DNA of 60,319 nt, counting the filler. It is 4 parts of 4 records of this genome, joined end to end, with 100 filler letters (N's around TTAATTAATTAA, not from the genome) between each part and the next. Parts side by side here need not be neighbours in the genome. Positions count along the whole stretch, not along the records: positions 40,513 to 50,202 come from DRR378314_2647; 3 more parts are not named here. One strand, given 5' to 3'. Every line of letters begins with the position of its first letter. Position 1 is the first letter of the stretch. Below the pieces are notes generated by a model, which had not been told where the DNA came from, searched no databases, and worked only from the letters and a program-made list of their open reading frames with translations. Position numbers and translations under genes: made by a program. Shown here piece by piece: positions 5,742 to 50,302 of this stretch.

Positions 5742-8700
5742 GAATTCACGGGCAAAGGCAAGGAAAGATGTTCTGTCTTGAGGAAGGTTGCAGAGCGGGG
5801 TGGCCTCGAGCAGTCAATACGTGGCACTGGCTGAGAAAGTGGTGATACTGGGAAGGCGTGCCGGCACAGTCCTGGGGCGCGCGGAGCAACACACAGGCGA
5901 AAGTTCGCTATCCACGCAGACGGGAAGAGCGCCGCGTAAGGCTCATGGAGCACGCCCCAAGGAGCACATGACGAACGTGCAGTGTGTCACAACAAGAGGA
6001 TCGCGTCCAGGAGGTTCGATCTCGCTCCCGGCAGTCCGACCGCTCGCTAGCACGCAGCAGAGGGGAACGCGCGCCGAACAAGCACGGGCGCGCTGCACGG
6101 CGCTGGCGAGGGCACGAGCACGATACAGAAACGCGTGTAGCCCTACTATCCCAAGCGATGTTGGCGCCGAGCGGCACATTTCTCTGCGGACGCCAAACCA
6201 GCGCAATGTAACGAATACAATCAGGTATTCGGCCGGGGGGGCTCAAAGTACTTCCACGCAGCGCTACATGTGACACGGTATCTTGTATTCGTGCTCGAGT
6301 TGGGAGTCTTTGCGAGAGGAAAAATAAATGAGCAACAGCACGTCGTCCTCTTGCACAGGGCGCGACCGGGACGGTTAGGCGCACGAGGTGCGGCAGCGAG
6401 GCCGGGACGCAGCGACGGCGGAACGAGGATGACCGCCACAGCACGAGCAAAAACGAACAAAAATGAATGGGGAGAAAAATTCGCCCCCTCTGGCACAGCA
6501 GCTTTGCCCTCGCTTCAACTCATCACCCTCGTTTTTCGTACGACAAGCAGCGCCAGGCGACCTACGTAGAGCCCGCCACGGCAAAGGTTTCTAGGCGTTG
6601 GTGGCAGGCGGTGCGCGATGCGGTTCACAACGGTGGGCGCTTGCAAGAGGTGGACGCAGAGCGGCGCGGAGAGAAAACGCCGACGCCAAGACCAGAAAAA
6701 AATGGCAAAGCAATGCGCACAAACGTACAGCTCGTCAGCAAAACTGTCTTTCGAAAGGAAACTCTATTTGTGAGCGAATAGAAGATGGAAGGACTGAACG
6801 GAGCAGGATTTCGCCTATTGCTAAACGAGTGCACACACCTTTACGCTAGCGCTGAGTGCGTGCACCGGGTGCCTTTTGGCCGGGACGCGGACGATGCACC
6901 GCAGCTCAAGTGCTTTACAGCCTCTCCAGTGGATTGCCAACTTTTGCCGACGCTATGCTGTGGCTGTGTCCTGGCGGTACCTGCTCCTTTTCGTGCACGA
7001 AGCAACTCTACTGATGTCAGCAGCTAGGAAGCCGTGAATGCTTGCGAGTTGTCGGCCTCGCTATGGTTCGTCATAGTGCACACACCTTGCGATGTCAGAG
7101 GTGCCGGGGAAGAGAACATCCGTCGCAACAACAGTCCAACGCGGCAGTCTGCAAGAGGTTGGACGAGCAGCAGAACGGGAGGGAACGTGCACGTGGAAGC
7201 TGTGCGCTGGAGCGAAGCTCTTGTGGAGCCGCACCTGCCTGGGGGAGAGCCGCGCGGGAGCGCAGTGTCTGGCTGGGGTACTAGGGTTCTACCCCCGACC
7301 GCACGGCGGTCCCATCGAGCGAGCGCGGAGTTCCGCAGCCTCTGCTGGGCACAGAAGAGCCGAGTACATCCCAGGTGCGTCCCAGGAGGCCCTGTTCGAA
7401 TTATGGTCAAAATCGGCTGTCTATCATGTGCAAATATATATATTGAATGAAAAACATCTGGGAAATTTCGTACAAGAATCCTACAACGAACGTTGGCTCT
7501 GTTTGTGCGCCGCGCGCGGCTTCGCTCAAGGTGGGAGCGAGTGACAACGCCCCGAGTGTCCCGGCGGCCGTCGCAGTGCGCTGTGCTCCGCGAGTTTCTG
7601 CATTTGCCGTCGACCTCGCCGTGCAACGCTGAGCAAGGAATTCCTGCATGGCCAAATCAATTGCGCTATAGTTAATGTAACGAAGCGCTCCTCATGAACC
7701 CTTTGATGGCGCGGATTTTGTGGGCTTGGGAAGCGGAGGGGGGGCGCGCCTGAAGCATTTTCATGTCCTCGAGGAAGACACGCTGCGCGCGCACGCGCTG
7801 CCCATGCGGGACGGCGGGACAGTGGAAGTGGATGCGCTGGCGTTTCTGCGAGACGGACACGGCCTGGAGACCTCCTAGGCATCCCACGTATACATCACAA
7901 AGATCGAAGACAGATCCTTGGATATTCATGTACATGTTCGACATGATGGAGATCTCGAGAAGTGCCAAAGCGCAGCGACGGCGCTTTTCGTCTCGCCCGA
8001 GGGCGGCTCTCCGGTCACGCCTGCGCGATCCTATCGCACAGCGGTTGCGAGCAGGGCCGGCGCTATGCCAGTCCGCCGTACGTTCGCACACTCGGGCTCC
8101 TGGGACAAGTGAAAAGTCGCTACCGTGCAGAAGTGCCTGTGTGCTCGAAGATTTTCGGTACGTACGTGCTTGACGTGGCACGGGTGGTCTCCGTATGCCG
8201 TTCTGCTCCAATTCTCGCATCACGACAGCCGGCCGCAACTTTCCTCTCGATAGTCGTGTTCGACTACAAGAAGCTCGAAAAGGTATGCGAATGTCAACGG
8301 GAAAAACTACTTGTGATACAGATAATTCGGCTATCATCTATACGGAGTACCTTGTGCGCTGGAAAGATGGTACATCATCGGAGGACGAGTAAAAGAGGTG
8401 CTCACGCGCGGCCACTGGGTGACGAATTAAACGGCGTTTGTTGCTACCGGGACGGAATTAATCAACATTCTGTAGCAGCGGGAAGCGGGAGGCGACTCCA
8501 CTTTATTCATCTCCCACCGTTTTATTCTCGTCATCGTTTTCTTCATCGAATAATACATAACCAACTCTCTCCCTCTTGATTTATCAACGCAATCAAGATC
8601 GCTATGCAGAAAAGTACGCCATAAACGATGTAGCGAGACGATAGTAGGGAAAGCGGATAGGCACAGATTGGTTCTGATGCGCTCTCCACATGTCCGCAGG

Positions 8701-8805: not shown

Positions 8806-11800
8806 TTATGGCGTGTTGCAAAAGGGGTCTCGACTACCGCGAGGTGTCTGCAACTCGATCTGTGAACTCACCCGGTGTGCATCCTTGTCCTCTTGGACGT
8901 GTTTCTCCTTCTTTTTCCCCGTTAGAGACGACCAGCAGCGCACAAAAGCTGAGAAGGTATGCTCGTCCTTTCCCGCCTTTTCACGAAGTACGACAGCGCC
9001 GGCAAACAGCCCAAACGCCGTAGAAATAAGCGAGAAGAACAGTGCCACCATAGCAGAGACAGGCTGATTGCGCGTAATCTCAATAAGTGTTGGTTCCTGT
9101 TCGCGGAAGCGGAGAACGATTGCCGAAGACGGAGAACCAAAACACGGTCCATTCGCTCCCGTGAGATCGGTGCCGCCAAATTGTAGCACAAGCTGCTGCA
9201 CCGAGGAGCTCGCGCGGTAGTCCTGCACGACCTCCTCTTGTACCTCGACTGTGTGCGACGGAAATGAAAAGAATGATGTGTCCGCGCGAACGGACGCTTG
9301 CAGCTGCGTGCGGATCGCCGATTCTGTTCCAATCGACGAAAACGTCCACGCGTATGCGCCAAGATTTGAAAACGTTCCTCGCCACGTGGATGTCTGGAAC
9401 GAATTAGCTACCTGAATGCACGCTGAACTCGCGAGCGGGTTGATTATGCACGATGCGCACTCGTACTGGACAAGGCACGTATGGAGCTCCGCGTCGTGTG
9501 ACGGCACGATGTGGCTCACACTTGTCTGCTGTGATCCCGATCCCGTGACACTAAATATGTCCTGCTCCAGAAAAATCGATCCATTTGTGCACATGGTGCT
9601 TACTTGCGCGTCAACAGTCATATTCAGGTCCAGTTGTATCCCGAACGCGACTCGGTTGATCCCGCGGGCGTTGAGGAGACTCTCGTTCACGACAAAGTCC
9701 TCACGCCGGTCGTTGTTCTCCCTATACTGCGTGGCAACGAACGCAATCAGCAGAACAGCAACAAAGAGAAATGCAACACTACACACACCGCCGGTATGCG
9801 TGCGATATGATTTGAGAAAGGCCGGTGTTTCGCCACTTCGCGTCTCAATCTTGACCTCAACGGGCTTGTTCACGGAAAAGAAAAGGTCCACCGGTCGAAG
9901 GTTCCGTTCTCCCTCCGGATCCCACCATGGGAGAATCGCGAGCACGGCCAGCGCCAAAATCACAGCCGCAACAACGACGAATACTGTAATCCATGGCTGC
10001 CATCCTCCAGAATTCACATCCACTTGAGGTGGGAAATCGTTGCTTGCAATCTGCACTTCTCCTCCGGACACGGCCACTGCCGAGGCTGCCGCAGCGGCCG
10101 CCGGAACAACCGGGTCCTCGAACACGAGTGTCGCTCCTACGGGGCAGAACGCTCCAGCTGGACAGGAGCGACACGCCGTATCGTTCGAAAGCGTCCGGTA
10201 CATTCCGCGCGGACACGGTGCACAACCAATGGAGGGAAAGGTTTTGCTGATGAAGCCCCTTGGGCACGAGCCGAGAGCAAAGACCTGGCCAAACGTAGAA
10301 AAGTAGACGGTACCGTCGGGCCCAACGGCCGGATAATCAAACAGCCCTCTGAACGCTTCGAGTTCCCAAACAGATGACGCATTATTTTTTCCGTCCAACG
10401 CGAGAAATTGTCCATCTTGCAGATTCTGATACACATACCCGTTGGCATCGATAAGAGGAGATACTGTTGTCAAGTCATTCACGGGTTCGATTCTCGTGTA
10501 CTCAGGGCTGCGCCACACCAGATCGCCACTGGGCGAATACTTGAAGATGTCGACCATGCCATTGCATACATACACAAAACCGTCTTTGTCGACGCTGGGT
10601 GTACCCAATACAGTCCGTGTTCCGCTTACAGACCCAGTCGGTAGTCTGTCCCAGAGTACGTTTCCGTTGAGGTCCATAGCAACGAGCTGCGGTCCGGCGC
10701 CGATGGTATACCCTCCAATGTACATCGTCGCGCCGTCGTTGGAGAGCGCGGGCCCAATGGAGCCCCAACAGAGGAGCTTCACTCCAGTGTCTTTTACCAG
10801 CGATGCCGAGCTATCAAAGACAAGGATCCCTGCAATACTTCCCGTAAAACCACCGCTTGGCAGTCCAGAGATATACACCATGTTTCCATTGGGAAGAGGT
10901 GATAGCGTAGCGCGTCTGATGTCCTCTACTTCGTTCGTCGTCAACGTGTGAACCGTGCACGACGTGAGTTTCCACGAGCACAGCCGAACGTTCACTGACG
11001 GCCCGCTCACCGTTTCTAGCGCTACAACACGACCAAAAATATCAATTTGGACAGGAATGCGATGCCACTGCGCCACAGAGGATATTGTGTTCAACACTCG
11101 CCCCGAATCAGCGCTCACAGCGTAAAGCTCGCCGCAGCGGAGATAGAGAACTTTTTGGCTGCCCAACGCCAGCGCGCCAAGGCAGGGAATATCCGTATTA
11201 CGCCAGATTTCTTCCCCTGTACTGCCGTTATACGCAACTACACCCGAAGGAAGCAAGGAAGCGTATACCACATTTTCTGCGGAGACGACCGGTGAGAGCG
11301 TCACACTGTGTCCTATCCACTTGATGGCAAACCCTGTAGCGCCTGAGGCGGACAGCGTTGTGAGAGCCTGCGGGATCCGTCCTTGGCGCCACTGGTACCC
11401 CTGCGGAGCACTCCACGAGCGCGAAAGTAGGATCTTTGTCATATTGGTACCGGCATCCACAACGATGACGTATCCATCTGGATGAACAGATAGGGACAGT
11501 ACCGCTGCACTGGCGGAAACCATCCATGCGCGCCTGCGGTGGCTGAACGAAGAGTCTGGACCTTGGCGCAGCGCGACGACCTGGTCAGCGTACGCGACAA
11601 TAACAAGCTCGTCGCCGTACGCTGCGGGCCCGGCCGTGATCGGCGAAGATGCGACATTTGCTTGCCAGAGGAGTGACAACGATCTGACATCATACGAGAC
11701 AACATTTCCAGCGTTCGTGCCTACATAAACAGTGTTCCCATTCACCGCGGGAGGCGTCGAAGCACTCGCCGCAACACTCTTCGTTGCGTACACGCCAGAC

Positions 11801-15200: not shown

Positions 15201-15300
15201 NNNNNNNNNNNNNNNNNNNNNNNNNNNNNNNNNNNNNNNNNNNNTTAATTAATTAANNNNNNNNNNNNNNNNNNNNNNNNNNNNNNNNNNNNNNNNNNNN
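15201..15300. other. Artificial contig linker
   Basis: N-run, TTAATTAATTAA (stops in all six frames), N-run; composition changes across it. Confidence 0.99.
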
Positions 15301-40412: not shown

Positions 40413-40512
40413 NNNNNNNNNNNNNNNNNNNNNNNNNNNNNNNNNNNNNNNNNNNNTTAATTAATTAANNNNNNNNNNNNNNNNNNNNNNNNNNNNNNNN
40501 NNNNNNNNNNNN
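40413..40512. other. Artificial contig linker
   Basis: N-run, TTAATTAATTAA, N-run. Confidence 0.99.
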
Positions 40513-40549
40513 CGCAGGGGGTCGCGGGTTCGAGTCCCGTCCAGACCGC
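40513..40549 (+). tRNA. 3' half of tRNA, most likely tRNA-Asp(GTC); truncated by contig start
   Basis: CGCAGGGGGTCGCGGGTTCGAGTCCCGTCCAGACCGC comprises the 3' anticodon stem, variable loop, T-arm (GGTTCGAGTCCC) and acceptor strand, and is typical of bacterial tRNA-Asp. The anticodon itself is not in the contig. Confidence 0.8.
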
Positions 40550-40670: not shown

Positions 40671-40789
40671 TGAACACTCCTTTGAAAGAGTCACCGCCAT
40701 CGCTGTAATTGACTGTTAAAGAAATCTTTACGAAGAAATTTTAACATTTGGTTTTACTACCTTCCGGTGACTATTTTAAAGTGTCACCA

Positions 40790-42046
40790 ATGTCTGGAAC
40801 CATCAACATCCTATTTTACCCAAAAAAAAGAGAATCCGATACAGACGGAAAAGTAACTGTTTATTGTAGAGTAACCGTTAATTCAAGACGTGCCGAATTC
40901 AGCCTTAGGCGTTCTGTGGATGAACAAAGATGGGACTCCCATAGTGGACGATTAAGAGGAACAGGCATTGAAGTATCCAAGTTCAACAGATTTCTGGATA
41001 CCGTCAAAAACCGTTGCTTTGAAATATATGATACCCTGCTCAGGGAACATCAGGATATTTCAGCTTCCATCATAAAGAACATTTATCTGGGAAAGGAAGG
41101 TAAGGAATGGATGGTATTGGAAATCTTTCAGGATCACAATGATGAAATGGAGAGCCTGATCGGGAAAGGATTTACCAAAGGGACCTTGCAGCGGTACAAT
41201 GCGGCCAAAAAACACGTATCAGATTATGTAAAACATACCTATCACCGGAACGATATACCTGTAAAAAAAGTTGACCACAAGTTTATCACCGGGTTGGAGC
41301 ATTTCTTGAAATCCAAAAAGAACTGCGACCACAATACCGCCGTTAAATATATTGTCAACTTCAAGAAAATCATTCGGATTGCCTATGCCAACCAATGGAT
41401 AAACAGAGACCCCTTCTTTCATTGGAAGGCCACTTGGAAAACCAAAGAGAAGCAATTTCTAACCCAAGCTGAGCTTGATACATTGCGAAGCAAAGAATCA
41501 TTTTTACCTCGTCTTGATTTGGTGAGGGATATTTTTGTCTTCTGTTGCTATACAGGTTTGGCTTATTCCGATGTGAAACAATTGAAACAAGGCGATATTA
41601 TAATCGGTGTTAACGGAGAAAGATGGATTAAAATGGCCAGAAAGAAAACTGGGTCCATAAGCAGCATCCCCCTGCTCCCAGTTGCGGAATCCATTATAGA
41701 AAAATACAACGAGCATCCTTATGTGTTGGATGGCAAAGGTGTTTTACCTGTACTCACCAATCAGAAATCAAATTCATATTTAAAAGAAATAGCTGATGTT
41801 TGTGGCATCCGTAAAAACCTAACAACCCACTTGGCCAGACATACCTTTGCCACAACCGTAACTTTGTCAAACGGTGTATCCATTGCCTCAGTGAGCAAAA
41901 TGTTGGGACATCGTTCCTTAAAGACCACTCAGATTTATGCCAAAGTTCTTGATACCAAAATTGCTGATGAAATGGATTTACTAAAAGAACGGTTAAAAGA
42001 GAAAGAGAGTCAAAAACCAGAGAATAAAACTCCATCCAAAACGTAA
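40790..42046 (+). CDS. Bacteroidetes-type site-specific tyrosine integrase (arm-binding + SAM-like + catalytic domains)
   Basis: N-terminal VYCRVTVNSRRAEFS, FCCYTGLAYSDV, HLARHTFATT, VSKMLGH and TTQIYA motifs; ATG 40790. Confidence 0.93.
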   Translation: MSGTINILFYPKKRESDTDGKVTVYCRVTVNSRRAEFSLRRSVDEQRWDSHSGRLRGTGIEVSKFNRFLDTVKNRCFEIYDTLLREHQDISASIIKNIYLGKEGKEWMVLEIFQDHNDEMESLIGKGFTKGTLQRYNAAKKHVSDYVKHTYHRNDIPVKKVDHKFITGLEHFLKSKKNCDHNTAVKYIVNFKKIIRIAYANQWINRDPFFHWKATWKTKEKQFLTQAELDTLRSKESFLPRLDLVRDIFVFCCYTGLAYSDVKQLKQGDIIIGVNGERWIKMARKKTGSISSIPLLPVAESIIEKYNEHPYVLDGKGVLPVLTNQKSNSYLKEIADVCGIRKNLTTHLARHTFATTVTLSNGVSIASVSKMLGHRSLKTTQIYAKVLDTKIADEMDLLKERLKEKESQKPENKTPSKT

Positions 42047-42648
42047 TCAAGTCCCAAACTTACCCCAAAACTTTGCGCTTGGATCCTGTTCCAATTTTAT
42101 AGCATTCGGGAAGATAAGCGTAAAGTAAAATTGGAATAGGGCGCACAACCTATTTTATATAATACATTGAGATGTTCCGGAAGTGGGCAAATCTCGGGAT
42201 ACGGAGTAGGCCGAGTTTGAATAGCGAGAGGGTAGCACGCCAAGGCGGTGCTACGTATTCAAATTTCGGCCCAAAGGGCCAGTGGAATCAAGTTTTTTTA
42301 TAATAAACCCTAATGATCAAACATCGATTTTTGCTGTAAAACCTCTGGAAACCCTTAAAAATACTAAAAAGATTTACTGTAAAAATTTGAGAACATTGAT
42401 TGGAACAGAGGTTTCTTTTGACCGTTCCGGATGGATGGACATGCCATTGATTCCTTTCAAGAAAATGGGTCAAATCCTATTAAATGCCATATAGACAGGA
42501 GAAAATATGGACCAGTTTTGGCTGGAGTATTGTCGTTTGCCTCGCTCAGTAAGGTTAGTTTGGCAAGATTTGGGGCTTGCAGCACTCCACTTCGTTGCGT
42601 TTGCTTTAGTATTGATTTCAGATTTATGATCAGGGTTTTTAAAGGCAC

Positions 42649-42731
42649 CGTTTTATTGAACTTTCAACCATAAACAAGTTCACTGATAATAAGGAGTTTA
42701 CTTTTTCCGTACACTTAAATAGTTTACCTTA
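42649..42731. promoter_or_regulatory. Putative res site upstream of the serine resolvase
   Basis: CGTTTTATTGAACTTT (42649-42664; reverse complement AAAGTTCAATAAAACG, 14/16 to the array motif). It is followed by imperfect dyads AAGTTCAC...GTTTACTT and GTACAC...GTTTAC just before the resolvase ATG. Confidence 0.55.
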
Positions 42732-42753
42732 TATACCCTTTTTTGCCCCTAAG

Positions 42754-43427
42754 ATGAAATTCGGATATGCAAGAGTGAGCACAAAATCACAAAAACACAA
42801 TTTACAGGTGGATGCCTTTTTGAAAGAAGGAATCAAACACAAGAACATCTATGCGGATATTTCATCTGGAGCAAAAGCTGAACGAAAAGGACTCGATGAG
42901 CTTTTGTCCATTTTGAGAGAGGGTGATACACTTGTGGTCTGGAAACTGGACCGAATAGCCAGAAGTCTTTCACACTTGACAAAACTTATTTAGGATTTTG
43001 AGAAAAAGGGAATCCACTTTAAAAGCATTCAGGAGAATTTCATTGATACAACATCCCTACATGGAATGTTTATCTTCAATCTTTTTGCATCATTTGCCCA
43101 ATTGGAACGGGACATCATTATTCAACGAACAAGGGCTGGGCTAGAAAGTTCAAGAAGGCGTGGTTTGAAAATTGGAAGAAAGCCTGGTCTTAGCAATAAG
43201 GCATTGCACAAAGCCATGCTGGCGGAAAGATATTACAGGGACAATAAACTGAGCATTGAAGAAATCATGAAACTCATTGATGTTGGTTCTAAAAAGACCC
43301 TTTATAAAATTTGGCATATCAAGGCAGAAGAAAGTGTATGGAATGCGGAAATCTATTTTGGGATAAGAAACAATCTTTCGACAAAGCTTATTGCAAAAAG
43401 CACAAAAGGAATATCAAAACCAGTTGA
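42754..43427 (+). pseudogene. Serine recombinase (resolvase/invertase family) disrupted by a nonsense codon and a 1-bp frameshift
   Basis: MKFGYARVST (catalytic Ser), LREGDTLVVWKLDRIARS. TAG at 42991-42993 is followed in the same frame by ...FAQLERDIIIQRTRAGL...GRKP and an HTH. After a shift near 43309 the reading continues LAYQGRRKCMEC...YCKKH to TGA 43425-43427. Confidence 0.88.
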
Positions 43428-43515
43428 CCGTTTAACTCTCCTTTCACCGAAAACCCAATTTTTTACAATTGGAAATTCCCTACATTTATTCGATCTTTAA
43501 GGAAACTAACGTGTA

Positions 43516-44256
43516 ATGCTCAAGTTCTTTCGAAAAATCCGTCAAAACTTGCTTTCAGAAGGCAAAACTGGAAAGTATTTGAAATATGCCATTGGTGAAA
43601 TCATTCTCGTTGTTATTGGGATTTTAATTGCCTTACAGATTAATAATTGGAATGAAAATAGAAAATTACAAAATATTGAACATAACTATTTAAAATTGTT
43701 ATTGGAAGATTTAGATGAAGAATCTATTAATCTAAATAATGCAATTTCTAATTCAGAGGAACTGATTACAAGATATGAGGAGTATGAAGAAAAGGCTAAC
43801 AACTCAAATATGGGTTTACTAGAAATTACTAGTAGTTTATCAAAGGTGGATCCTGCGGTAGTAACACCTATTTTCAAAATTGATGTTATGGAAACTTTAA
43901 TATCCACTGGTGATATAAAACTAATTCCAACTGAAATAAGAAAGAAAATCATTGAATTAAATAACGCTCAAGAATATATAAGACAGATCACTAAAAGAAA
44001 CGGTACTATTCATGCTGAGCAAATATACGAATTGGGAAAAATAGGATGGAGTAAAGCAGTCGGAAGATTAATTAAAAACCCTGCAACCAATATAGCTTTC
44101 ACCGATGAGAGGATTATTCAAATAATCTTCGCTGTGGAATCGGTATATTACATGAAATACGAAAATGAAAAATTTTATATTGCAAAATATGAAGGAATGC
44201 TTAGCGACATAATTGGTTTAAAAAAGGAAATAAGGTTGGAGTTAAATCAAAAATGA
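43516..44256 (+). CDS. DUF6090-like N-terminally anchored membrane protein
   Basis: Begins MLKFFRKIRQNLLSEGKTGKYLKYAIGEIILVVIGILIALQINNWNE, a conserved Flavobacteriaceae N-terminus. Confidence 0.75.
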   Translation: MLKFFRKIRQNLLSEGKTGKYLKYAIGEIILVVIGILIALQINNWNENRKLQNIEHNYLKLLLEDLDEESINLNNAISNSEELITRYEEYEEKANNSNMGLLEITSSLSKVDPAVVTPIFKIDVMETLISTGDIKLIPTEIRKKIIELNNAQEYIRQITKRNGTIHAEQIYELGKIGWSKAVGRLIKNPATNIAFTDERIIQIIFAVESVYYMKYENEKFYIAKYEGMLSDIIGLKKEIRLELNQK

Positions 44257-44314: not shown

Positions 44315-44427
44315 GGTGTATGGTTGATGGCGAAGTTTGAACTTAATAGAAAAGTCTAGGATTATTCGCTCAATTATCCATCGGATAAAAAAGATTGTGT
44401 GTCTTTCCTCTCTACTAACCATACACC
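44315..44427. repeat. Inverted-repeat element, attC-like fold-back
   Basis: Perfect 11-bp IR: GGTGTATGGTT (44315-44325) and AACCATACACC (44417-44427). Confidence 0.55.
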
Positions 44428-44459
44428 AATCCGTGGGCAAAGTTCAAATAAACGATAAT

Positions 44460-44924
44460 ATGAAGTTCAAGAAATCTTTACAAATGACCGTTTGTCTTAT
44501 CGCTATTTCTCAGTCAGTTTCGTGTAATTCTCAATCTACTAATAGTTCCAACATACAGGGAAATTGGTTTCCAGAATATCTGGGAGATATTAACGAAGTT
44601 TATACGGAATTTTATATTGATGATACAAGCGTTTATCATTTTTATCCTATTTCAGAGACAATTTCAGCCAACGAATATTATATCACAAATTCAAAATTAT
44701 ATTTCGGAAAGGACAATGGTGATTCTGCCAAGCTCATGGGTACTGTCTCTATCAAAAATGATACTTTAACTATTGTTAATGAAGCAGGAAATAGTTCATT
44801 CTTGAAACAAAATGAATTACCAAGTTTGGAAGATTTGATTAATGATAATACTTCCTTAGATATTTTTTTCGAGGGATATATTAATCGTGAAGCTGTTTGG
44901 AATGAAAATAAGTACAAGCCGTAA
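44460..44924 (+). CDS. Cassette 1: hypothetical exported protein/putative lipoprotein
   Basis: ATG 5 bp after repeat copy 1; signal-like N-terminus ending SVSC; IQGNW lipocalin-like start. Confidence 0.65.
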   Translation: MKFKKSLQMTVCLIAISQSVSCNSQSTNSSNIQGNWFPEYLGDINEVYTEFYIDDTSVYHFYPISETISANEYYITNSKLYFGKDNGDSAKLMGTVSIKNDTLTIVNEAGNSSFLKQNELPSLEDLINDNTSLDIFFEGYINREAVWNENKYKP

Positions 44925-44959
44925 TTTAAATAAAGTTCAAATAAACGATTGCAAGATTA

Positions 44960-45313
44960 ATGGATTTGCTATTAGAAAACCTCAATGAATCTGAAGGTTC
45001 ATTTTATGAAAAACTACATCAGGAAGGTTATTTTGACAATTCCTTGTTTGCAGAATTGATAATCTACATTGATGGATTAAATTCTAGACAATTATCCGAG
45101 ATCCAGCGATTACGGTATTGTTCTCAAATTTGGGAATTGGCTTACCGTATGCAATCGAGTATTGGGTATAATCATAATCAAAATGACGTATTTCAAATTT
45201 CAAATATAGAAGATGAAAAGTTGATTGAAATCGGACAAGTTCTAGAGTATATAAGCAAATCATTCACCGAAAATAGAATGTTGGATATGGATTTCATTAA
45301 TGAAATAATCTAA
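44960..45313 (+). CDS. Cassette 2: small acidic hypothetical protein (possibly immunity-protein-like)
   Basis: 117-aa ORF filling the interval between repeat copies 2 and 3. Confidence 0.6.
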   Translation: MDLLLENLNESEGSFYEKLHQEGYFDNSLFAELIIYIDGLNSRQLSEIQRLRYCSQIWELAYRMQSSIGYNHNQNDVFQISNIEDEKLIEIGQVLEYISKSFTENRMLDMDFINEII

Positions 45314-45365
45314 CTTATAATCCATTTAAAGTTCAAATAAACGTTGGAAGTAAATTAATTACTGA

Positions 45366-46154
45366 ATGAACAAAATACTATTACTAATGCTGATTTCTTT
45401 GCCAATTTATGGTATTGGACAAATTGCGAACAGACTGCAACCCGATAGTATATATTCAAATCGACAAGTAAAGAAAATATTTGTCTATCTAAATTCACCA
45501 AGAGACTTGTCTGAAATAATTGAGTTTGATCGAAGTGGTAAAAAAATAAGCACAATAAAATACAGTGCATCTTATAATAGAAGAACTCGAAAAGTAAAAT
45601 GGGTTGAAAAAATCAACCAATTTAAATATGACAAGGAAAACAAACTCGTTAAAGTAATAGATTCAATAGGTAAAGACACTACAACCTTCCAGTATGGAAA
45701 AAATGGAAAGCTAAAGTCATCAATTGAAAAAGTTGGGAATTTTGTATACCATGTAAACTATCGTCACAACCCTTTCGGTAAAACGACATTCAGAAAAAAT
45801 GACTCTGTTATCCTTTATCAAAAAACCACAGAATACGATAGGGACTTTTATGTCAAACGATTTTACGGATTTGAACTTGAACCTAAACTAAAAAAGATTA
45901 CCGACACTATTGACGGAATTCCTAATACGCTTGTTTATAAGGACTATAATGATTTGGAAAAGTTTAAAGATGATGAAACTATTACGAATCATTTCAATGC
46001 AAAAGGCATTCTAATAAAATCTGAAATTCATTCGATATTCCTAAATAACAGAGTTAATGATTGGGAGTTGAATTATAAATATTTCAAAAACGGACTTTTA
46101 AAGAGTATTCGTGGATATGTGCCAAGGTACTTTAAATATGAATTCTGGGATTAA
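45366..46154 (+). CDS. Cassette 3: secreted hypothetical protein with YD-like repeats
   Basis: Signal peptide; repeated FKYDKENKL / FQYGKNGKLKS / YKYFKNGLLKS. Confidence 0.65.
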   Translation: MNKILLLMLISLPIYGIGQIANRLQPDSIYSNRQVKKIFVYLNSPRDLSEIIEFDRSGKKISTIKYSASYNRRTRKVKWVEKINQFKYDKENKLVKVIDSIGKDTTTFQYGKNGKLKSSIEKVGNFVYHVNYRHNPFGKTTFRKNDSVILYQKTTEYDRDFYVKRFYGFELEPKLKKITDTIDGIPNTLVYKDYNDLEKFKDDETITNHFNAKGILIKSEIHSIFLNNRVNDWELNYKYFKNGLLKSIRGYVPRYFKYEFWD

Positions 46155-46187
46155 TAAAGTTCAAATAAACGATGACAGATTAAACCA

Positions 46188-47237
46188 ATGACCAATAAAT
46201 TGAGAAAAATTGAAATCAACATATTACCATTAATCCTTTCGATATTATTGGTATTAATCTCCGTTGGAGTTATGATGTCATCTCAGTTTGTTTTCACATC
46301 TAAACAATACATTGGAGTAGTTTGTCTGGCAATTTCTACAATCCTTTATTTCCTAAATAAAAAGTTCTATGTCGTTTTCTTCGCATTGACGTTAACAATG
46401 GGACTATTGGGCTTGTTGGACTTTTATGTAACTACATATAAGGTTGGATTTGCTGGTGCTGGAATCAATCCAATTTTCTTGGGATTGATAATATTATTAT
46501 TGGTGGTGAGCAAAGAACAGATGGGTGGCCTTAGTTACAAAGATGCTCATAATGGTGAACGTAAATTGAATGGAGCCTTGATAGAGTCCTTAATTAAAGA
46601 TTTCAATGCCAAATCAGACTTAGAGTTAAATGAGATTTTGAATAATGATTCAAAATACACTGATGAAGCAAAATCTGCAGCAATTAGTATTTTGGAAAAT
46701 AGAGGAGAAAAGAAAGACACCAAGAAATTTAGATGCTCTGTATGTGGGGAAATCCATGATGAATTACCAGCTCTTGGATTTAAAACTCCGTTCCATTATG
46801 ATATTCTAAATGAGGATAACAAGAGGGAGATTGCCGAAATATCAAGTGATTTTTGCGAAGTTCATCAACCAGAACAAACCGATAGGTTCATTAGAACAGT
46901 TTTGACAATACAGGTGAATGATGCATGTGAAAATCTAGACTATGGAGTTTGGGTTTCATTAAGTGAGGAGAGTTTCAAAGAATATGAAAGAAACTTCAAA
47001 AAGGATTCTGAGGAGAAAGTATATTTCGGAATGATCTGTAATGAAATATCAGATTACGAAGAAAGTACCATTGGTCTTCATGTAAATGTAAAAACTCGAA
47101 ACGGGGGTATTAGGCCTGAGATTATTCCTCATCAAAATGATCATAATTTAATTTCTGATTGGGAAAATGGTATTACCATCAAGGAAGCTGAAAAAAGAGT
47201 AAAATTAACTTTAGAGGCTCCTGGCAATAATTCTTAG
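46188..47237 (+). CDS. Cassette 4: membrane protein fused to a DUF2199-like domain
   Basis: About four N-terminal TM helices; C-terminal half FRCSVCGEIHDELPALGF...DRFIR...LDYGVWVSLSEESF. Confidence 0.7.
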   Translation: MTNKLRKIEINILPLILSILLVLISVGVMMSSQFVFTSKQYIGVVCLAISTILYFLNKKFYVVFFALTLTMGLLGLLDFYVTTYKVGFAGAGINPIFLGLIILLLVVSKEQMGGLSYKDAHNGERKLNGALIESLIKDFNAKSDLELNEILNNDSKYTDEAKSAAISILENRGEKKDTKKFRCSVCGEIHDELPALGFKTPFHYDILNEDNKREIAEISSDFCEVHQPEQTDRFIRTVLTIQVNDACENLDYGVWVSLSEESFKEYERNFKKDSEEKVYFGMICNEISDYEESTIGLHVNVKTRNGGIRPEIIPHQNDHNLISDWENGITIKEAEKRVKLTLEAPGNNS

Positions 47238-47302
47238 AGTGATAGAAACAAGATTAATAAAAGTTCAAATAAACTATTCGAAAACAAGTTGTTGCACATT
47301 TG

Positions 47303-47653
47303 ATGGAGATTTTAAACACAAATAATTTGAGGGTTGAACAATTGGATAAAAACAAATATCTGACTTGGACTTCCGTAATGTATTTTTCATTTGTTCCAAA
47401 GGTCATCTTTGAATTGAATGATGATGGAAAAGTAGCAAATATAAAAATTGTTGGATTTACTAAATCCTTGATGCTAAACTTACTATTTGTAATCGCAGTC
47501 TTCTTGATTTATTTTTTTGTAGAAAATATGGAATTCTCAAGAATTATGGATTTTATCCCTCTCCTTATTGGGATAATAATTCTTCTAATTGTTATAAACT
47601 TTATTATTATCGGAACAACTAAAAGAAAAGTAAAAGAACAGATTGAATATTAA
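47303..47653 (+). CDS. Cassette 5: small membrane protein (possibly 5'-truncated)
   Basis: Two C-terminal TM helices; lies between repeat copies 5 and 6. Confidence 0.55.
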   Translation: MEILNTNNLRVEQLDKNKYLTWTSVMYFSFVPKVIFELNDDGKVANIKIVGFTKSLMLNLLFVIAVFLIYFFVENMEFSRIMDFIPLLIGIIILLIVINFIIIGTTKRKVKEQIEY

Positions 47654-47717
47654 AATAATCTGCCAACAAACACTGAGTTAAATCAAAGTTCAAACAAACG
47701 ATTCAGATAAAACTTAA

Positions 47718-48200
47718 ATGAACGAAAACGAAGATTACTTTAGGATTTCCAAAAATGGAAATGTTCATACCCTGAGCGATCGAATCCCATTCAGATGGAA
47801 AGAACTGATGATTTGGACTTCGACTTCGTTCCTTTTTTTGATTTTTCTCTTAGGGGTTTGGGCTGGAATTTTGGTAGCCATTCTGACATTAATCGGTTAT
47901 ATGTTTTATCGATTTGCAGCCAGTATTTATTACTCAGTTTTGGAAATAGATGAGCAAAGTGGAAGAATGACCAGAACAATGAAATTTCTTGACAGGGTTG
48001 ATAAAGAGGAATTGATAACAGACAAGTTTGACCCGAATCGATTTGAATTTTCTGAATTATCAAGAAGTGGAAAATCAAAGTTCTTAATGAATTATAGAAC
48101 ACATAAAAACAATGAGTTGTTGGTGTTGAAAAACAAAAAAGATAAAGAATTCATACAAAAATATATTTCTGACAATTTTGCTATTGGAAGAAATGTTTAA
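47718..48200 (+). CDS. Cassette 6: hypothetical membrane protein
   Basis: 160 aa with a hydrophobic hairpin; lies between repeat copies 6 and 7. Confidence 0.65.
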   Translation: MNENEDYFRISKNGNVHTLSDRIPFRWKELMIWTSTSFLFLIFLLGVWAGILVAILTLIGYMFYRFAASIYYSVLEIDEQSGRMTRTMKFLDRVDKEELITDKFDPNRFEFSELSRSGKSKFLMNYRTHKNNELLVLKNKKDKEFIQKYISDNFAIGRNV

Positions 48201-48243
48201 ACCAAAGTTTAAATAAACGATAAATACAGATATGTAATAAGTT

Positions 48244-48711
48244 TTGAGAAGACCCAAGAAAATATCGGTAACTAAGCTTTTGATTGTAATAAGTGTCTTT
48301 TCATTTATGTTGTCCTCATGTTCTAGGAATACAGCAAATCTATTTGTTGGTGTCTGGACAATTGAAGATATAGCCTATAAAGGAAAAGATATTGGTGAGA
48401 AAATCTCTTTAAATGCCCTTGTTTTTAAAGAGAACAATGAAGTTATGGTGCCAGGAATTGTTGGTGAGTTATTAAATAAAAAAGACAGACAAGGTAAATG
48501 GAATATTGATGAAGACGGGTTTTTAATCATAACTTCCAACAATCAATATATAAATGGAAGAGCTAAATATTGTTTTGAAAATAGTGAGGATGAAGAACTT
48601 CTTAAAGTTGTAATAGAAACAGAAGAACTGTATATGGAGGCATTTAAACTTTTTAGTAAAAATGACACTTATGGTCGGTTGCCTTGTATCAATAATGCCC
48701 TACCAAAATAG
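48244..48711 (+). CDS. Cassette 7: putative lipoprotein, lipocalin-like
   Basis: Lipobox LSSC followed by LFVGVW and GKWNID motifs; TTG start. Confidence 0.6.
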   Translation: MRRPKKISVTKLLIVISVFSFMLSSCSRNTANLFVGVWTIEDIAYKGKDIGEKISLNALVFKENNEVMVPGIVGELLNKKDRQGKWNIDEDGFLIITSNNQYINGRAKYCFENSEDEELLKVVIETEELYMEAFKLFSKNDTYGRLPCINNALPK

Positions 48712-48790
48712 AATAAGGAAAAAGAAAAGTTCAAATAAACGATCAGATTATATACAAAGAACCTAATACCAGATAAAAAAACACAATAAC

Positions 48791-49342
48791 ATGAAAAAAA
48801 TAGTTGTCTCAGTTCTTTTACTCTCATTCTCCTTCATCACAATGACTGCACAGAGCAATGAAGCTACATTAATATTCAAGGATGGAAGCAAAATATCTGG
48901 ACTTGGCAAATTGACAAATGCTAAAACAATCAAGTTCAGAAAAACAAAAAAGGATAAAAGGCAAGTATTTACGTTCAAGGAAGTAGATACTTTGAAGGTG
49001 AACCATAAGTATGGAACAACAACATATGCTGAATCGGAGATTGAGAATCGAGATGAGCCTGAGGTATTGGAAGTTATCATGGTTTCCAATTCAATTGCCT
49101 ATTACCAAAAATTTAAAATGGGAGCTCCAGGAAGGAGTTCAATTAATTATTACTTAAGAAGAAAAACAGAAAACCGAGCTGTTAATTTTGGTTCAAACCA
49201 GTTGGTCACAAGAAATTTCAAAAAAGTGGCAAAAACATTTTTCAGTGACTGTAAAGAATTGGTACAGGCAATTGAGGATGAAAAATATGGTAGATTTCAA
49301 TTGACCGAAATCATTGAGTTTTATGAGGAGGAATGCAAATAG
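48791..49342 (+). CDS. Cassette 8: secreted hypothetical protein
   Basis: Sec signal MKKIVVSVLLLSFSFITMTAQ; C-terminal FFSDC...IIEFYEEEC. Confidence 0.65.
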   Translation: MKKIVVSVLLLSFSFITMTAQSNEATLIFKDGSKISGLGKLTNAKTIKFRKTKKDKRQVFTFKEVDTLKVNHKYGTTTYAESEIENRDEPEVLEVIMVSNSIAYYQKFKMGAPGRSSINYYLRRKTENRAVNFGSNQLVTRNFKKVAKTFFSDCKELVQAIEDEKYGRFQLTEIIEFYEEECK

Positions 49343-49442
49343 TTAAATTTTAGCCTGTAGAAGTTCAAATAAACGTACACCAAAATGCTTTTATCTGCTA
49401 TCTAGCACGATTTTTGTAACTTTATATTAAAGAGGTATTCCA

Positions 49443-49685
49443 ATGAACATGTCAGAATCAAAATCCACTAAAAAAGAACTGGTAGGTTGGATAGAATCCC
49501 TAAAGGATGATACCATCCTAGGGCTTTTGAATTCAGTGAAACTTTCGAGTGAGGGAAAGTCAGGTGACTGGTGGGACGAACTCACAGAAAGTGACAGGGT
49601 AAATATTCTTTCAGGGATACGAGACTTTGAGCAGGGTCTGACAATGAGCTCAAAAGATTTTTGGAACGGCCTGGCCAATGGATGA
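49443..49685 (+). CDS. Cassette 9a: putative antitoxin (addiction-module component)
   Basis: 80-aa acidic protein with DWWDELTES motif, overlapping the downstream RelE/ParE toxin gene. Confidence 0.7.
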   Translation: MNMSESKSTKKELVGWIESLKDDTILGLLNSVKLSSEGKSGDWWDELTESDRVNILSGIRDFEQGLTMSSKDFWNGLANG

Positions 49686-49974
49686 TTTGTATGAAGTACA
49701 GTGGACCGAAAGGTCCCTATCCAACGCATTGGAAATAAAAGCATATCTAAAAAGAAGATTCAGCAAAAAGGAAATTGTAAGATTTGAGGAACTTTTAAAG
49801 CAATTTGAGAATACTGTATCCAATTTTCCAACGCTTTATACGGAATCACGTAAACAGAAATCATTAAGACGTGCTGTAGTCCATAAAAACACTACTATCT
49901 ATTATATTTTCAAGGAAGATAAGGTTACTGTCATTGCTATGAAAGATAATAGACAGCTCAAACCGAGTGGTTGA
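49678..49974 (+). CDS. Cassette 9b: RelE/ParE-family type II toxin
   Basis: YEVQWTERSLSNALEIKAYL...FPTLY...LRRAVV...TIYYIF...VIAMKDNRQ, a basic protein of about 98 aa. Confidence 0.8.
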   Translation: MDDLYEVQWTERSLSNALEIKAYLKRRFSKKEIVRFEELLKQFENTVSNFPTLYTESRKQKSLRRAVVHKNTTIYYIFKEDKVTVIAMKDNRQLKPSG

Positions 49975-50170
49975 TGTTCAAATAAACCATGAACTTGAAA
50001 CTGAGTTTAGACATTTGCTAAACGAACAATAAAATAAAAGTCAAGATAGGCGACAGGGTATAAAGCAAATTATTCAAACAAATGTTAAACTTTGTTAAAA
50101 GGTGAGCAGGACGGTGAGCACAAAAAACCGTCCCTTCGTAGGCCTTATATAGAGTGTGTTTTGAGTAAAA

Positions 50171-50192
50171 GTTCGAGTCCCGTCCAGACCGC
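50171..50192 (+). repeat. att direct repeat (duplicated tRNA 3' end)
   Basis: Identical to 40528-40549. Confidence 0.93.
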
Positions 50193-50202
50193 AAAAAGCT
50201 TC

Positions 50203-50302
50203 NNNNNNNNNNNNNNNNNNNNNNNNNNNNNNNNNNNNNNNNNNNNTTAATTAATTAANNNNNNNNNNNNNNNNNNNNNNNNNNNNNNNNNNNNNNNNNN
50301 NN
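50203..50302. other. Artificial contig linker
   Basis: N-run, TTAATTAATTAA, N-run. Confidence 0.99.

Follow-up and report, generated by a model that had tools for sequence, protein, structure and literature searches.

The question raised by this locus is why a copy of a cassette-array repeat, in inverted orientation, stands directly upstream of the broken gene for a small serine recombinase, and to which enzyme the repeat belongs. The DNA analysed (the window; 60,319 nucleotides (nt)) consists of four contigs joined by N/TTAATTAATTAA linkers at 15245-15256, 40413-40512 and 50203-50302; the third contig (40513-50202, DRR378314_2647) carries the inverted copy, termed S0 here, together with the recombinase gene and the array. 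The analysis confirmed that this inverted copy is real and conserved. S0 is probably half of the crossover-type site that belongs to the small serine recombinase itself, namely the half of a split dyad on the recombinase side, placed at the left end of the module.

S0 had first been described as a 16-nt sequence, CGTTTTATTGAACTTT, at 42649-42664, the reverse complement of which (AAAGTTCAATAAAACG) resembles the array motif (AAAGTTCAAATAAACG); the match was reproduced exactly (14/16 identical, two mismatches). The full 18-nt copy, ACCGTTTTATTGAACTTT, occupies 42647-42664 on the minus strand and was delimited by a position matrix, alignments and plasmid dyads; it comprises a centre, AC (42647-48), and the 16-nt recombinase-side arm. 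In the 3,888 nt of the contig outside the array, one match with no more than two mismatches was found, and at least one such match arose in 26 of 2000 dinucleotide shuffles; on the window data alone, S0 is only moderately significant (p about 0.013). Its reality was settled, beyond window statistics, by the comparative loci. A second inverted site at the 3′ end of the recombinase gene (43483-43498, three mismatches) was discarded, since 1.38 such sites are expected per window by chance and the other loci do not keep it.

For the comparison, the recombinase sequence, with its stop codon read through as X, was scanned against genome contigs, which gave 80 loci: twelve from Flagellimonas, Allomuricauda and Muricauda (81-94 % identity), three from Aquimarina (58-59 %), and unrelated resolvases (L016-L080; 41-54 %). 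The 79 array sites behind the position matrix were selected at no more than two mismatches to the 16-mer, which leaves only positions 17-18 unbiased. Of the 15 close loci, 13 share with the window a minus-strand site of at least 11 bits at −125 to −95 from the ATG, about 105 nt upstream; Aquimarina locus L012, at 59 % protein identity, is among them. S0 reads ACCG in 13/13 Flagellimonas-type copies; in L013 and L014 its outer half is gone and the inner T.AACTT is retained. Across the 16 sequences (window and 15 loci), 95 plus-strand sites of at least 14 bits lie downstream of the recombinase gene and none upstream, and no other minus-strand site reaches 14 bits. The control, 68 distant-resolvase loci (975 kb), yielded eight weak matches of at least 11 bits and no arrays. 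Conservation of the site upstream of homologous resolvases, as proposed in the initial annotation, was thereby borne out in 13 of 15 loci; its co-variation with the motif of each array was not demonstrable, as that motif does not change over the 58-94 % identity range.

When the upstream regions were aligned, conservation ran from ACCG to the ATG, and left of ACCG the sequences were unrelated. Pairwise blastn between loci with differing flanks placed the start of homology at 9886-9895, and at least seven different left contexts were found at S0. In L015, a tyrosine-integrase gene beside a tRNA-Arg gene (9275-9911) contains an internal stop and is cut at the outer edge of S0 after ...WINKD; as judged from this junction, the recombinase module is inserted into the integrase gene. 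A 105-nt flank of tRNA-Arg/integrase-like backbone adjoins S0 in L006, and in L002 it recurs inverted beside the terminal array site, the match (77 % over 126 nt) running up to that site. Whether AC or AT is present at the junctions of L015 and of L002/L006 goes with the end of the module and not with the flank. An array was present in all 12 loci with at least 5 kb beyond the recombinase ATG. By these alignments, S0 is shown to be a recombination junction and the exact left boundary of the recombinase-plus-array module, and S0, the recombinase and the one-directional cassette array are shown to form a conserved module. A comparison of the right ends of the loci established no shared right flank and no target-site duplication; the apparent right flank of L007 turned out to be a truncated cassette.

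Plasmid relatives supplied the geometry of the site. A tblastn search of plasmids with an intact orthologue gave three Bacteroidota plasmids (L081-L083; 52-56 % identity), all three without a cassette array. L082 (Aureispira sp. CCB-E plasmid) contains at 8856-8889 a 34-nt dyad of the form 16-2-16 (TAAGTTCAAAAAAACGACCGTTTATGTGAACTCA; arms 13/16 self-complementary), the left arm of which matches the array repeat and the right arm S0, with AC as the centre. A weaker dyad, again centred on AC, lies at 106-139 in L081 (A. anguillae plasmid; arms 10/16). The Aureispira dyads stand 110-130 nt (in L082, 110-145 nt) upstream of recombinases of 54-56 % identity and are followed by GTTYAW repeats. On this model, an array site would be the left arm with the centre AT, and S0 the centre AC with the right arm; the "inverted copy" would then be the complementary arm, and S0 and the array sites would be direct in their natural alignment. 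An array arm joined to S0 would recreate a full site of the plasmid type on a circle. S0 is in this respect the key that ties the repeat to the enzyme and exposes the arm-centre-arm geometry.

Two other positions for the dyad centre were considered and rejected. A centre halfway along the 18-mer (positions 9-10) is at odds with positions 10-11, which are the most variable and show A/T swaps, and is further ruled out by repeat variants that remain whole with the upstream unit and by the plasmid dyad centre at positions 17-18. A centre at C15-G16 was dropped on the same grounds, the symmetry axis of L082 lying in AC. On the Emticicia plasmid (L083; recombinase 52 % identical), a dyad at about 8850-8877 was seen by eye to share the inner ATAAAC...GTTTAT and to have another outer part, which hints that the outer arm may co-vary with the protein. 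L082 carries two recombinase genes in tandem.

The ten plus-strand array sites counted initially, nine strong and one degenerate, were all recovered with the motif matrix: site 1 (AAAGTTCAAATAAACGAT; arm with centre AT) at 44439-44456, site 2 at 44932-44949, site 3 (centre TT) at 45328-45345, site 4 at 46156-46173, site 5 at 47260-47277, site 6 at 47685-47702, site 7 at 48204-48221, site 8 at 48726-48743, site 9 (GAAGTTCAAATAAACGTA) at 49360-49377, and the degenerate terminal site 10 (GATGTTCAAATAAACCAT) at 49973-49990. Over the loci, the array element is 18 nt long, with the sequence of site 1; position 17 is A in 77 of 79 sites and position 18 is T in 76 of 79, and the centre dinucleotide is AT in 73 of 77. 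Conservation is confined to these 18 nt, with sharp edges, and positions 19-34 are uninformative. An ATG stands at positions 17-19 in 23 of 77 sites; in 12 of these it begins an open reading frame (ORF) of at least 60 amino acids (aa), so that the crossover dinucleotide would belong to the start codon of that cassette.

Cassette content was wholly different between genomes. The few cassettes that recur do so at other array positions: L004 11748-12297 corresponds to L008 12625-13174 (96 %), L004 14975-15610 to L007 12231-12868 (90 %), and L007 11572-12025 to L008 13341-13795 (93 %). Each has different neighbours, and the homology runs from the first 2-4 nt of one 18-mer to a few nt of the next. 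In L001, L002 and L005, the platform is followed by a variant repeat, AAAATTCAAATAAAGGAT, with three different cassettes downstream, and a second, AAGGTTCAAAAAAAC, is common to L003 and L008, also with different cassettes downstream. As the variants stay with the upstream unit, each site goes, like attC, with the ORF before it, and exchange takes place at the 3′ edge of the site (positions 17-18). These array comparisons show an exchange of cassettes between arrays at the repeats. Excision between array sites, as suggested in the initial annotation, gains indirect support from common cassettes that are bounded by repeats and stand at different positions.

The recombinase gene of the window (42754-43500, plus strand) was identified by PF00239 (3e-39) and a YARVST motif. 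It is a pseudogene: codon 80 is an in-frame TAG (42991-42993), and at about 43309, past codon 186, a −1 frameshift deletes the C-terminal CxxC...CxxH tail found in the orthologues of 217-224 aa. With the recombinase dead, the window array would be frozen, barring the action of another copy in trans. The intact orthologues fall into a Flagellimonas type (217-224 aa) and an Aquimarina type (206-207 aa), in which an N-terminal catalytic domain is followed by a helix-turn-helix (HTH). Matches to HTH_7/HTH_23 were obtained only in three Aquimarina orthologues, below the curated cut-offs except for HTH_23 in L014 (24.7 versus 24.6); the Flagellimonas-type proteins and the window copy have no Pfam HTH, and the HTH was assigned there from the alignment. 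The Flagellimonas type (L001-L011) has a conserved CxxC-x15-CxxH C-terminus (e.g., L008 10577-10675), possibly a zinc ribbon; the Aquimarina-type enzymes have no CxxC tail, and their arrays carry the same repeat. The closest solved structures were those of Gin invertase (1e-36) and γδ resolvase (2.5e-31). No curated NCBIfam model reached its cut-off on the recombinase: the IS607 model NF033518 scored 39.8 versus a cut-off of 110, over the catalytic part only, and the Ccr and XisF models matched only the catalytic domain, far below their cut-offs.

The recombinase of L009 is likewise without an intact ORF. Both L006 and L009 come from Allomuricauda sp. CAU 1633, and two modules per genome are therefore possible. 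A module with a broken gene could be served in trans by an intact copy.

The sequence between S0 and the start codon (42665-42753, plus strand) appears to be a res-like accessory and promoter region; it is kept from S0 to the ATG in 13 loci and partly in Aquimarina. All of the elements described initially were found in place, namely AAGTTCAC at 42677-84 and GTTTACTT at 42697-704, GTACAC at 42710-15 and GTTTAC at 42723-28, and the ATG at 42754. Three GTTYAN hexamers lie on the plus strand (42679-84, 42697-702, 42723-28) and two on the minus strand (42656-61, 42671-76); the five copies in the 107 nt of the window compare with 1.07 expected, a number matched in one of 2000 shuffles. In the upstream alignment, the spacer from S0 to the next hexamer is variable and S0 is invariant. 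Both dyads proposed initially could be traced in the window and the Flagellimonas loci. The Aquimarina sequences have lost the AAGT/ACTT arms but retain the hexamers in the same orientation, and the hexamers are accordingly read as direct repeats.

The designation "res-like" is, on this evidence, fair for the layout (a distal crossover-type site, proximal repeats and the plasmid dyads); the two dyads are not kept as dyads in Aquimarina, and three putative dimer subsites go beyond what the sequence establishes. As in the res sites of Tn3 and γδ, the crossover-type site is the one farthest from the gene and binding repeats extend to the start codon, over about 105-130 nt, and the enzyme is a small serine recombinase with an N-terminal catalytic Ser (HTH by alignment in the Flagellimonas type). 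Unlike in res, the chromosomal S0 has one arm, its partner sites are without an accessory region, and the proximal repeats are direct and not dyadic. Full dyads occurred only in the plasmid relatives L081 and L082, and the hexamers are conserved as direct repeats. No Tn3-family transposase was found among the ORFs of the contig or the loci (one IS200 insertion was present in L014), and no 38-bp terminal repeats were found.

With S0 as one half of a split crossover-type site, the following mechanism is proposed. A Gin/Hin-like recombinase is predicted to bind the arms and would excise and insert cassettes through site-by-site recombination at AT centres. A circular element with the recombinase and a full site may have integrated into a non-cognate target, leaving S0 as an attL-like half-site. 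S0 would now be a fixed end and, with the hexamers, a binding or regulatory region for the recombinase. The mismatch between the centres AC and AT would curb recombination of S0 with cassette sites and so protect the recombinase gene, and rare events between S0 and the terminal site might flip or move the whole module. In the serine transposons (IS607 family; Tn4451/Tn5397; SCCmec Ccr), the binding sequence lies on the element side only, the circle rejoins a full site, and the targets are of weak specificity. The module is similar in that S0 and the terminal array arm face outward and the left contexts are varied; it differs from IS607 in its domain order, catalytic-HTH as opposed to MerR-HTH-catalytic.

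Several points weigh against this proposal. The array sites are without a recognisable second arm, and a serine-recombinase dimer on half-sites would be unusual. Binding of the arms and catalysis by the recombinase are predictions, and the arm-centre-arm geometry is drawn from two plasmid loci, both from Aureispira. A single integration would predict the same centre at S0 and at the terminal site; that these differ (AC versus AT) is awkward. The flips between L002 and L006 and between L081 and L082 would fit the initially proposed inversion better than a protected S0. As L013 and L014 keep their arrays, a complete S0 is dispensable for array retention. The broken recombinase of the window permits no inference on activity in the source genome. 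Finally, the ORFs scanned with Pfam were called from ATG at a length of at least 70 aa, and a small recombinase or one started by GTG or TTG might be missed.

Were S0 an operator only, the recombinase bound at S0 and the hexamers would repress its own promoter and no strand exchange would take place; Tn3-type resolvases repress their own gene through res. The fixed distance of S0 from the ATG, the conserved hexamers after it and its location in the only possible promoter region would agree with such a role, as would the survival of the inner part of S0 alone in L013 and L014, where the arrays persist. An operator without further function is nevertheless unlikely, since it fails on the breaks in homology at the outer edge of S0 in at least seven contexts, on the cut integrase ORF of L015 and on the flank that is joined to either end of the module.

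The initial annotation had taken S0 for an inverted site, recombination of which with any array site would routinely invert the recombinase gene and n cassettes, in the manner of a shufflon or of Hin. The 18-mers of S0 and of the array are indeed inverted, the catalytic domain is nearest to that of Gin invertase, and two whole-module flips exist: the flank shared by L006 and L002 abuts S0 in one and, inverted, the terminal array site in the other, and a comparison of L081 1-853 with L082 8863-9730 revealed that the homology breaks at the AC centre and that the recombinase-bearing segment is inverted. In L082, an inverted pair of dyad sites with an identical centre surrounds the recombinase. 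As a routine process in the arrays, inversion was not sustained and is judged rather improbable. The full plasmid dyads present S0 as the other, complementary arm of the same site, its centre is AC in 13/13 copies versus AT in 73/77 array sites, and the 95 array sites lie on one strand and downstream in 16/16 sequences, with none split to the left of the recombinase as partial inversions would give. Read in their own orientations, the centres are GT in S0 and AT in the array; in serine recombinases, a centre mismatch blocks ligation of the recombinant. The L002/L006 flip is equally explained by insertion in either orientation.

Among known inversion systems, those of Hin, Gin, Cin and Pin are approached in the nearest solved relative (Gin), in a recombinase located between oppositely facing arms and in the two natural flips; the module differs from them in having many partner sites on one side, different centres at S0 and in the array, and cassette turnover in place of a two-state switch, and inverted dyads with identical centres were absent (GT versus AT, single arms). 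Shufflons have repeats in both orientations, and their recombinase, Rci, is a tyrosine recombinase. Many short repeats of about 19 nt beside a recombinase are a feature shared with the shufflon (Rci, sfx); the orientation of the array sites, which is the same in 95/95, and the serine recombinase are not. The array is neither a cointegrate-resolution nor a two-state inversion system.

A use of the repeat by the neighbouring tyrosine integrase, as in integrons or rAID loci, with the copy upstream of the resolvase gene being incidental, would be suggested by the integrase gene 0.6 kb upstream in the window, by such genes upstream in L003, L009 and L015, and by known cassette arrays (integrons, rAID-1), which rely on tyrosine recombinases. 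Pfam was run on 186 of 188 ATG-started ORFs of at least 70 aa from position 6000 onwards in the 15 loci, and on eight large upstream ORFs. Homologues of the window integrase were found in L003, L009, L015 and, weakly, L005. PF00589 was matched upstream in L003 and L009 and downstream on the other strand in L002 (weakly) and L005; L006 has a 378-aa ORF that is a DNA-level homologue of the weak integrase of L002. A tyrosine integrase was thus detectable near 5-6 of the 15 loci, two of these being downstream on the other strand and one cut by the module. In L001, L004, L007, L008 and L010-L014 (9/15 loci), the sequence scanned contained no integrase homologue and no PF00589 match.

The integrases have sites of their own. 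Repeats of the tRNA 3′ end, 28 nt long in L003 and 25 nt in L009, bracket the integrase gene and the module, and in L015 the integrase gene is itself interrupted by the module; tRNA or tmRNA genes lie near many loci, and the other flanks are ordinary chromosomal genes. The tyrosine integrase would thus move the carrier island, and the constant partner of the array is the serine recombinase. Array sites also had no hairpin tendency (80-nt windows around nine sites; mean minimum free energy (MFE) z = +0.61, DNA parameters), and a related site stands upstream of recombinase relatives on plasmids without such an integrase. Use by the tyrosine integrase is therefore very improbable, and the initial assignment of the motif to the resolvase was upheld by the joint presence of S0, the recombinase and the array in 12/12 loci with at least 5 kb downstream and by the inconstancy of the integrase. 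Chance resemblance, or conservation by descent without function, is barely credible: it could appeal to the window-only p value and to 12 of the 13 S0 loci being close relatives (81-94 %), in which some upstream conservation is expected, and it is countered by the constancy of S0 beside a spacer of varying length, by the sharp boundary, by S0 in Aquimarina L012 (59 %) and by the related sites in Aureispira plasmids (54-56 %).

With S0 preferred as half of a split recombinase site, the module can be set against known cassette arrays. It is like an integron in having a recombinase platform, one-directional cassettes without promoters, a 3′ site kept with the upstream ORF, strain-variable content, toxin-antitoxin cassettes and a ride on a larger mobile element. 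It differs in that a small serine recombinase is co-directional with the cassettes, IntI of integrons being a divergent tyrosine recombinase; in its 18-nt double-strand motif as opposed to a folded attC of 60-140 nt; and in the platform-side site, which is upstream of the recombinase gene and not between gene and array. Co-oriented variable cassettes with 3′ sites were found, then, and an IntI-type recombinase and attC folding were not.

The rAID-1 loci were defined by a tyrosine recombinase of the XerD-like kind at the 5′ end, at least 44 % identical to BF9343_RS08045 (Ross et al. 2019, 10.1101/471110), and rAID-1 and polyimmunity loci of Bacteroidales were described as low-GC co-oriented arrays (10.1101/471110; 10.1101/2025.05.03.651265; Zhang et al. 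2012, PMC3482391). The likeness is one of layout: both are found in Bacteroidota, with low-GC co-oriented short genes, an intergenic motif, a recombinase and some immunity cassettes, and the window has at least two co-directional low-GC downstream genes with a repeated intergenic motif (ten sites). The constant partner here is of the serine type, and the hosts are marine Flavobacteriaceae as opposed to gut Bacteroidales; membership in rAID-1 is unlikely, given this recombinase. In working, the array resembles integrons and rAID, yet its recombinase is not of their type.

A report on RADS (PMC13552941) links small serine recombinases to defence genes; in its available part, integrons, inverted repeats, cassette arrays and recombination sites are not mentioned, and "cassette" refers only to resistance or SCCmec. 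A serine-recombinase cassette array was not found in the full-text literature within reach, which comprised neither subscription-only papers nor bioRxiv supplements. The possibility put forward tentatively is that the module is a serine-recombinase counterpart of the integron, built on a split dyad of which the platform keeps one arm and the cassettes the other, and in which cassettes, and now and then the entire platform, would move by recombination at half-sites. There is a substantial chance that the array deserves the rank of a new class. To our knowledge, the cassette-array systems that have been well described, integrons and rAID, all rely on tyrosine recombinases. If the tentative reading is true, gene-cassette capture evolved at least twice, on unrelated chemistries; the hypervariable islands of abundant marine Flavobacteriaceae, with their toxin-antitoxin, immunity-type, hydrolase and unassigned cassettes, would be explained; and engineers would have a compact recombination system built of a 16-nt arm and a 2-nt centre.

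In its surroundings, the module is, as judged from the repeats at its ends, carried whole inside a tRNA-targeting island mobilised by a tyrosine integrase. The third contig opens inside a tRNA gene, in its 3′ end, and near the other end of the contig the same 22 nt recur without a mismatch; the left direct repeat (40528-40549, plus strand) is the putative attL of the tyrosine integrase, and the right copy (50171-50192, plus strand) the putative attR of the island. As these repeats lie near both contig ends, everything between them would be an island bracketed by tRNA-3′ direct repeats, and the contig breaks coincide with the att repeats. ARAGORN reported no tRNA in the window, the one with which the contig begins being truncated. 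Inverted matches at 40733-40753 and 50076-50096, near the att repeats, may be integrase-binding sites.

Rightwards from the left repeat, the order is integrase, 0.6 kb of non-coding or short-ORF DNA, S0, serine recombinase, DUF6090 gene and nine cassettes. The integrase gene (40790-42046, plus strand) encodes Arm-DNA-bind_5, SAM_5 and Phage_integrase domains (Pfam) and scored 46 versus a cut-off of 265 with the NCBIfam integron-integrase model TIGR02249 and 30.3 versus 435 with NF011946. The flank left of S0, about 110 nt (42537-42646), is common to L003, L004, L008 and L009 and is kept in relatives with or without the integrase; Rfam gave nothing near gathering scores on the third contig, this flank included. 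The GC content is 0.31-0.33 over the array versus 0.36-0.38 over the integrase and recombinase region. Over the four contigs it is 0.55, 0.43, 0.31-0.38 and 0.55, a spread that suggests a draft or binned assembly, possibly of mixed organisms.

The DUF6090 gene (43516-44256, plus strand) lies between the recombinase gene and array site 1 and has no counterpart in any related locus. The nine co-directional cassettes (44460-49974, plus strand) are mostly without a Pfam family, and neither their proteins nor DUF6090 had a relative in any of the 80 loci. A DUF2199 cassette (Pfam) lies at 46188-47237 on the plus strand. The last cassette (49443-49974, plus strand) contains an antitoxin-like ORF and a weak ParE-like match (E = 0.001; 20.1 bits, cut-off 23). 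Elsewhere, an Imm27 cassette occurs in L001 and a weak Imm11 match in the left flank of L012; L007 has a clear ParD/ParE cassette as well as a RhuM/Fic cassette, and the Aquimarina cassettes include NYN, GIY-YIG and nucleotidyltransferase. The 180-nt spacer before array site 1 contains an 11-nt inverted repeat, GGTGTATGGTT (44315-44325) and AACCATACACC (44417-44427), and a minus-strand 9-mer, AAGTTCAAA, at 44333-44341 that matches the arm and is possibly a decayed site.

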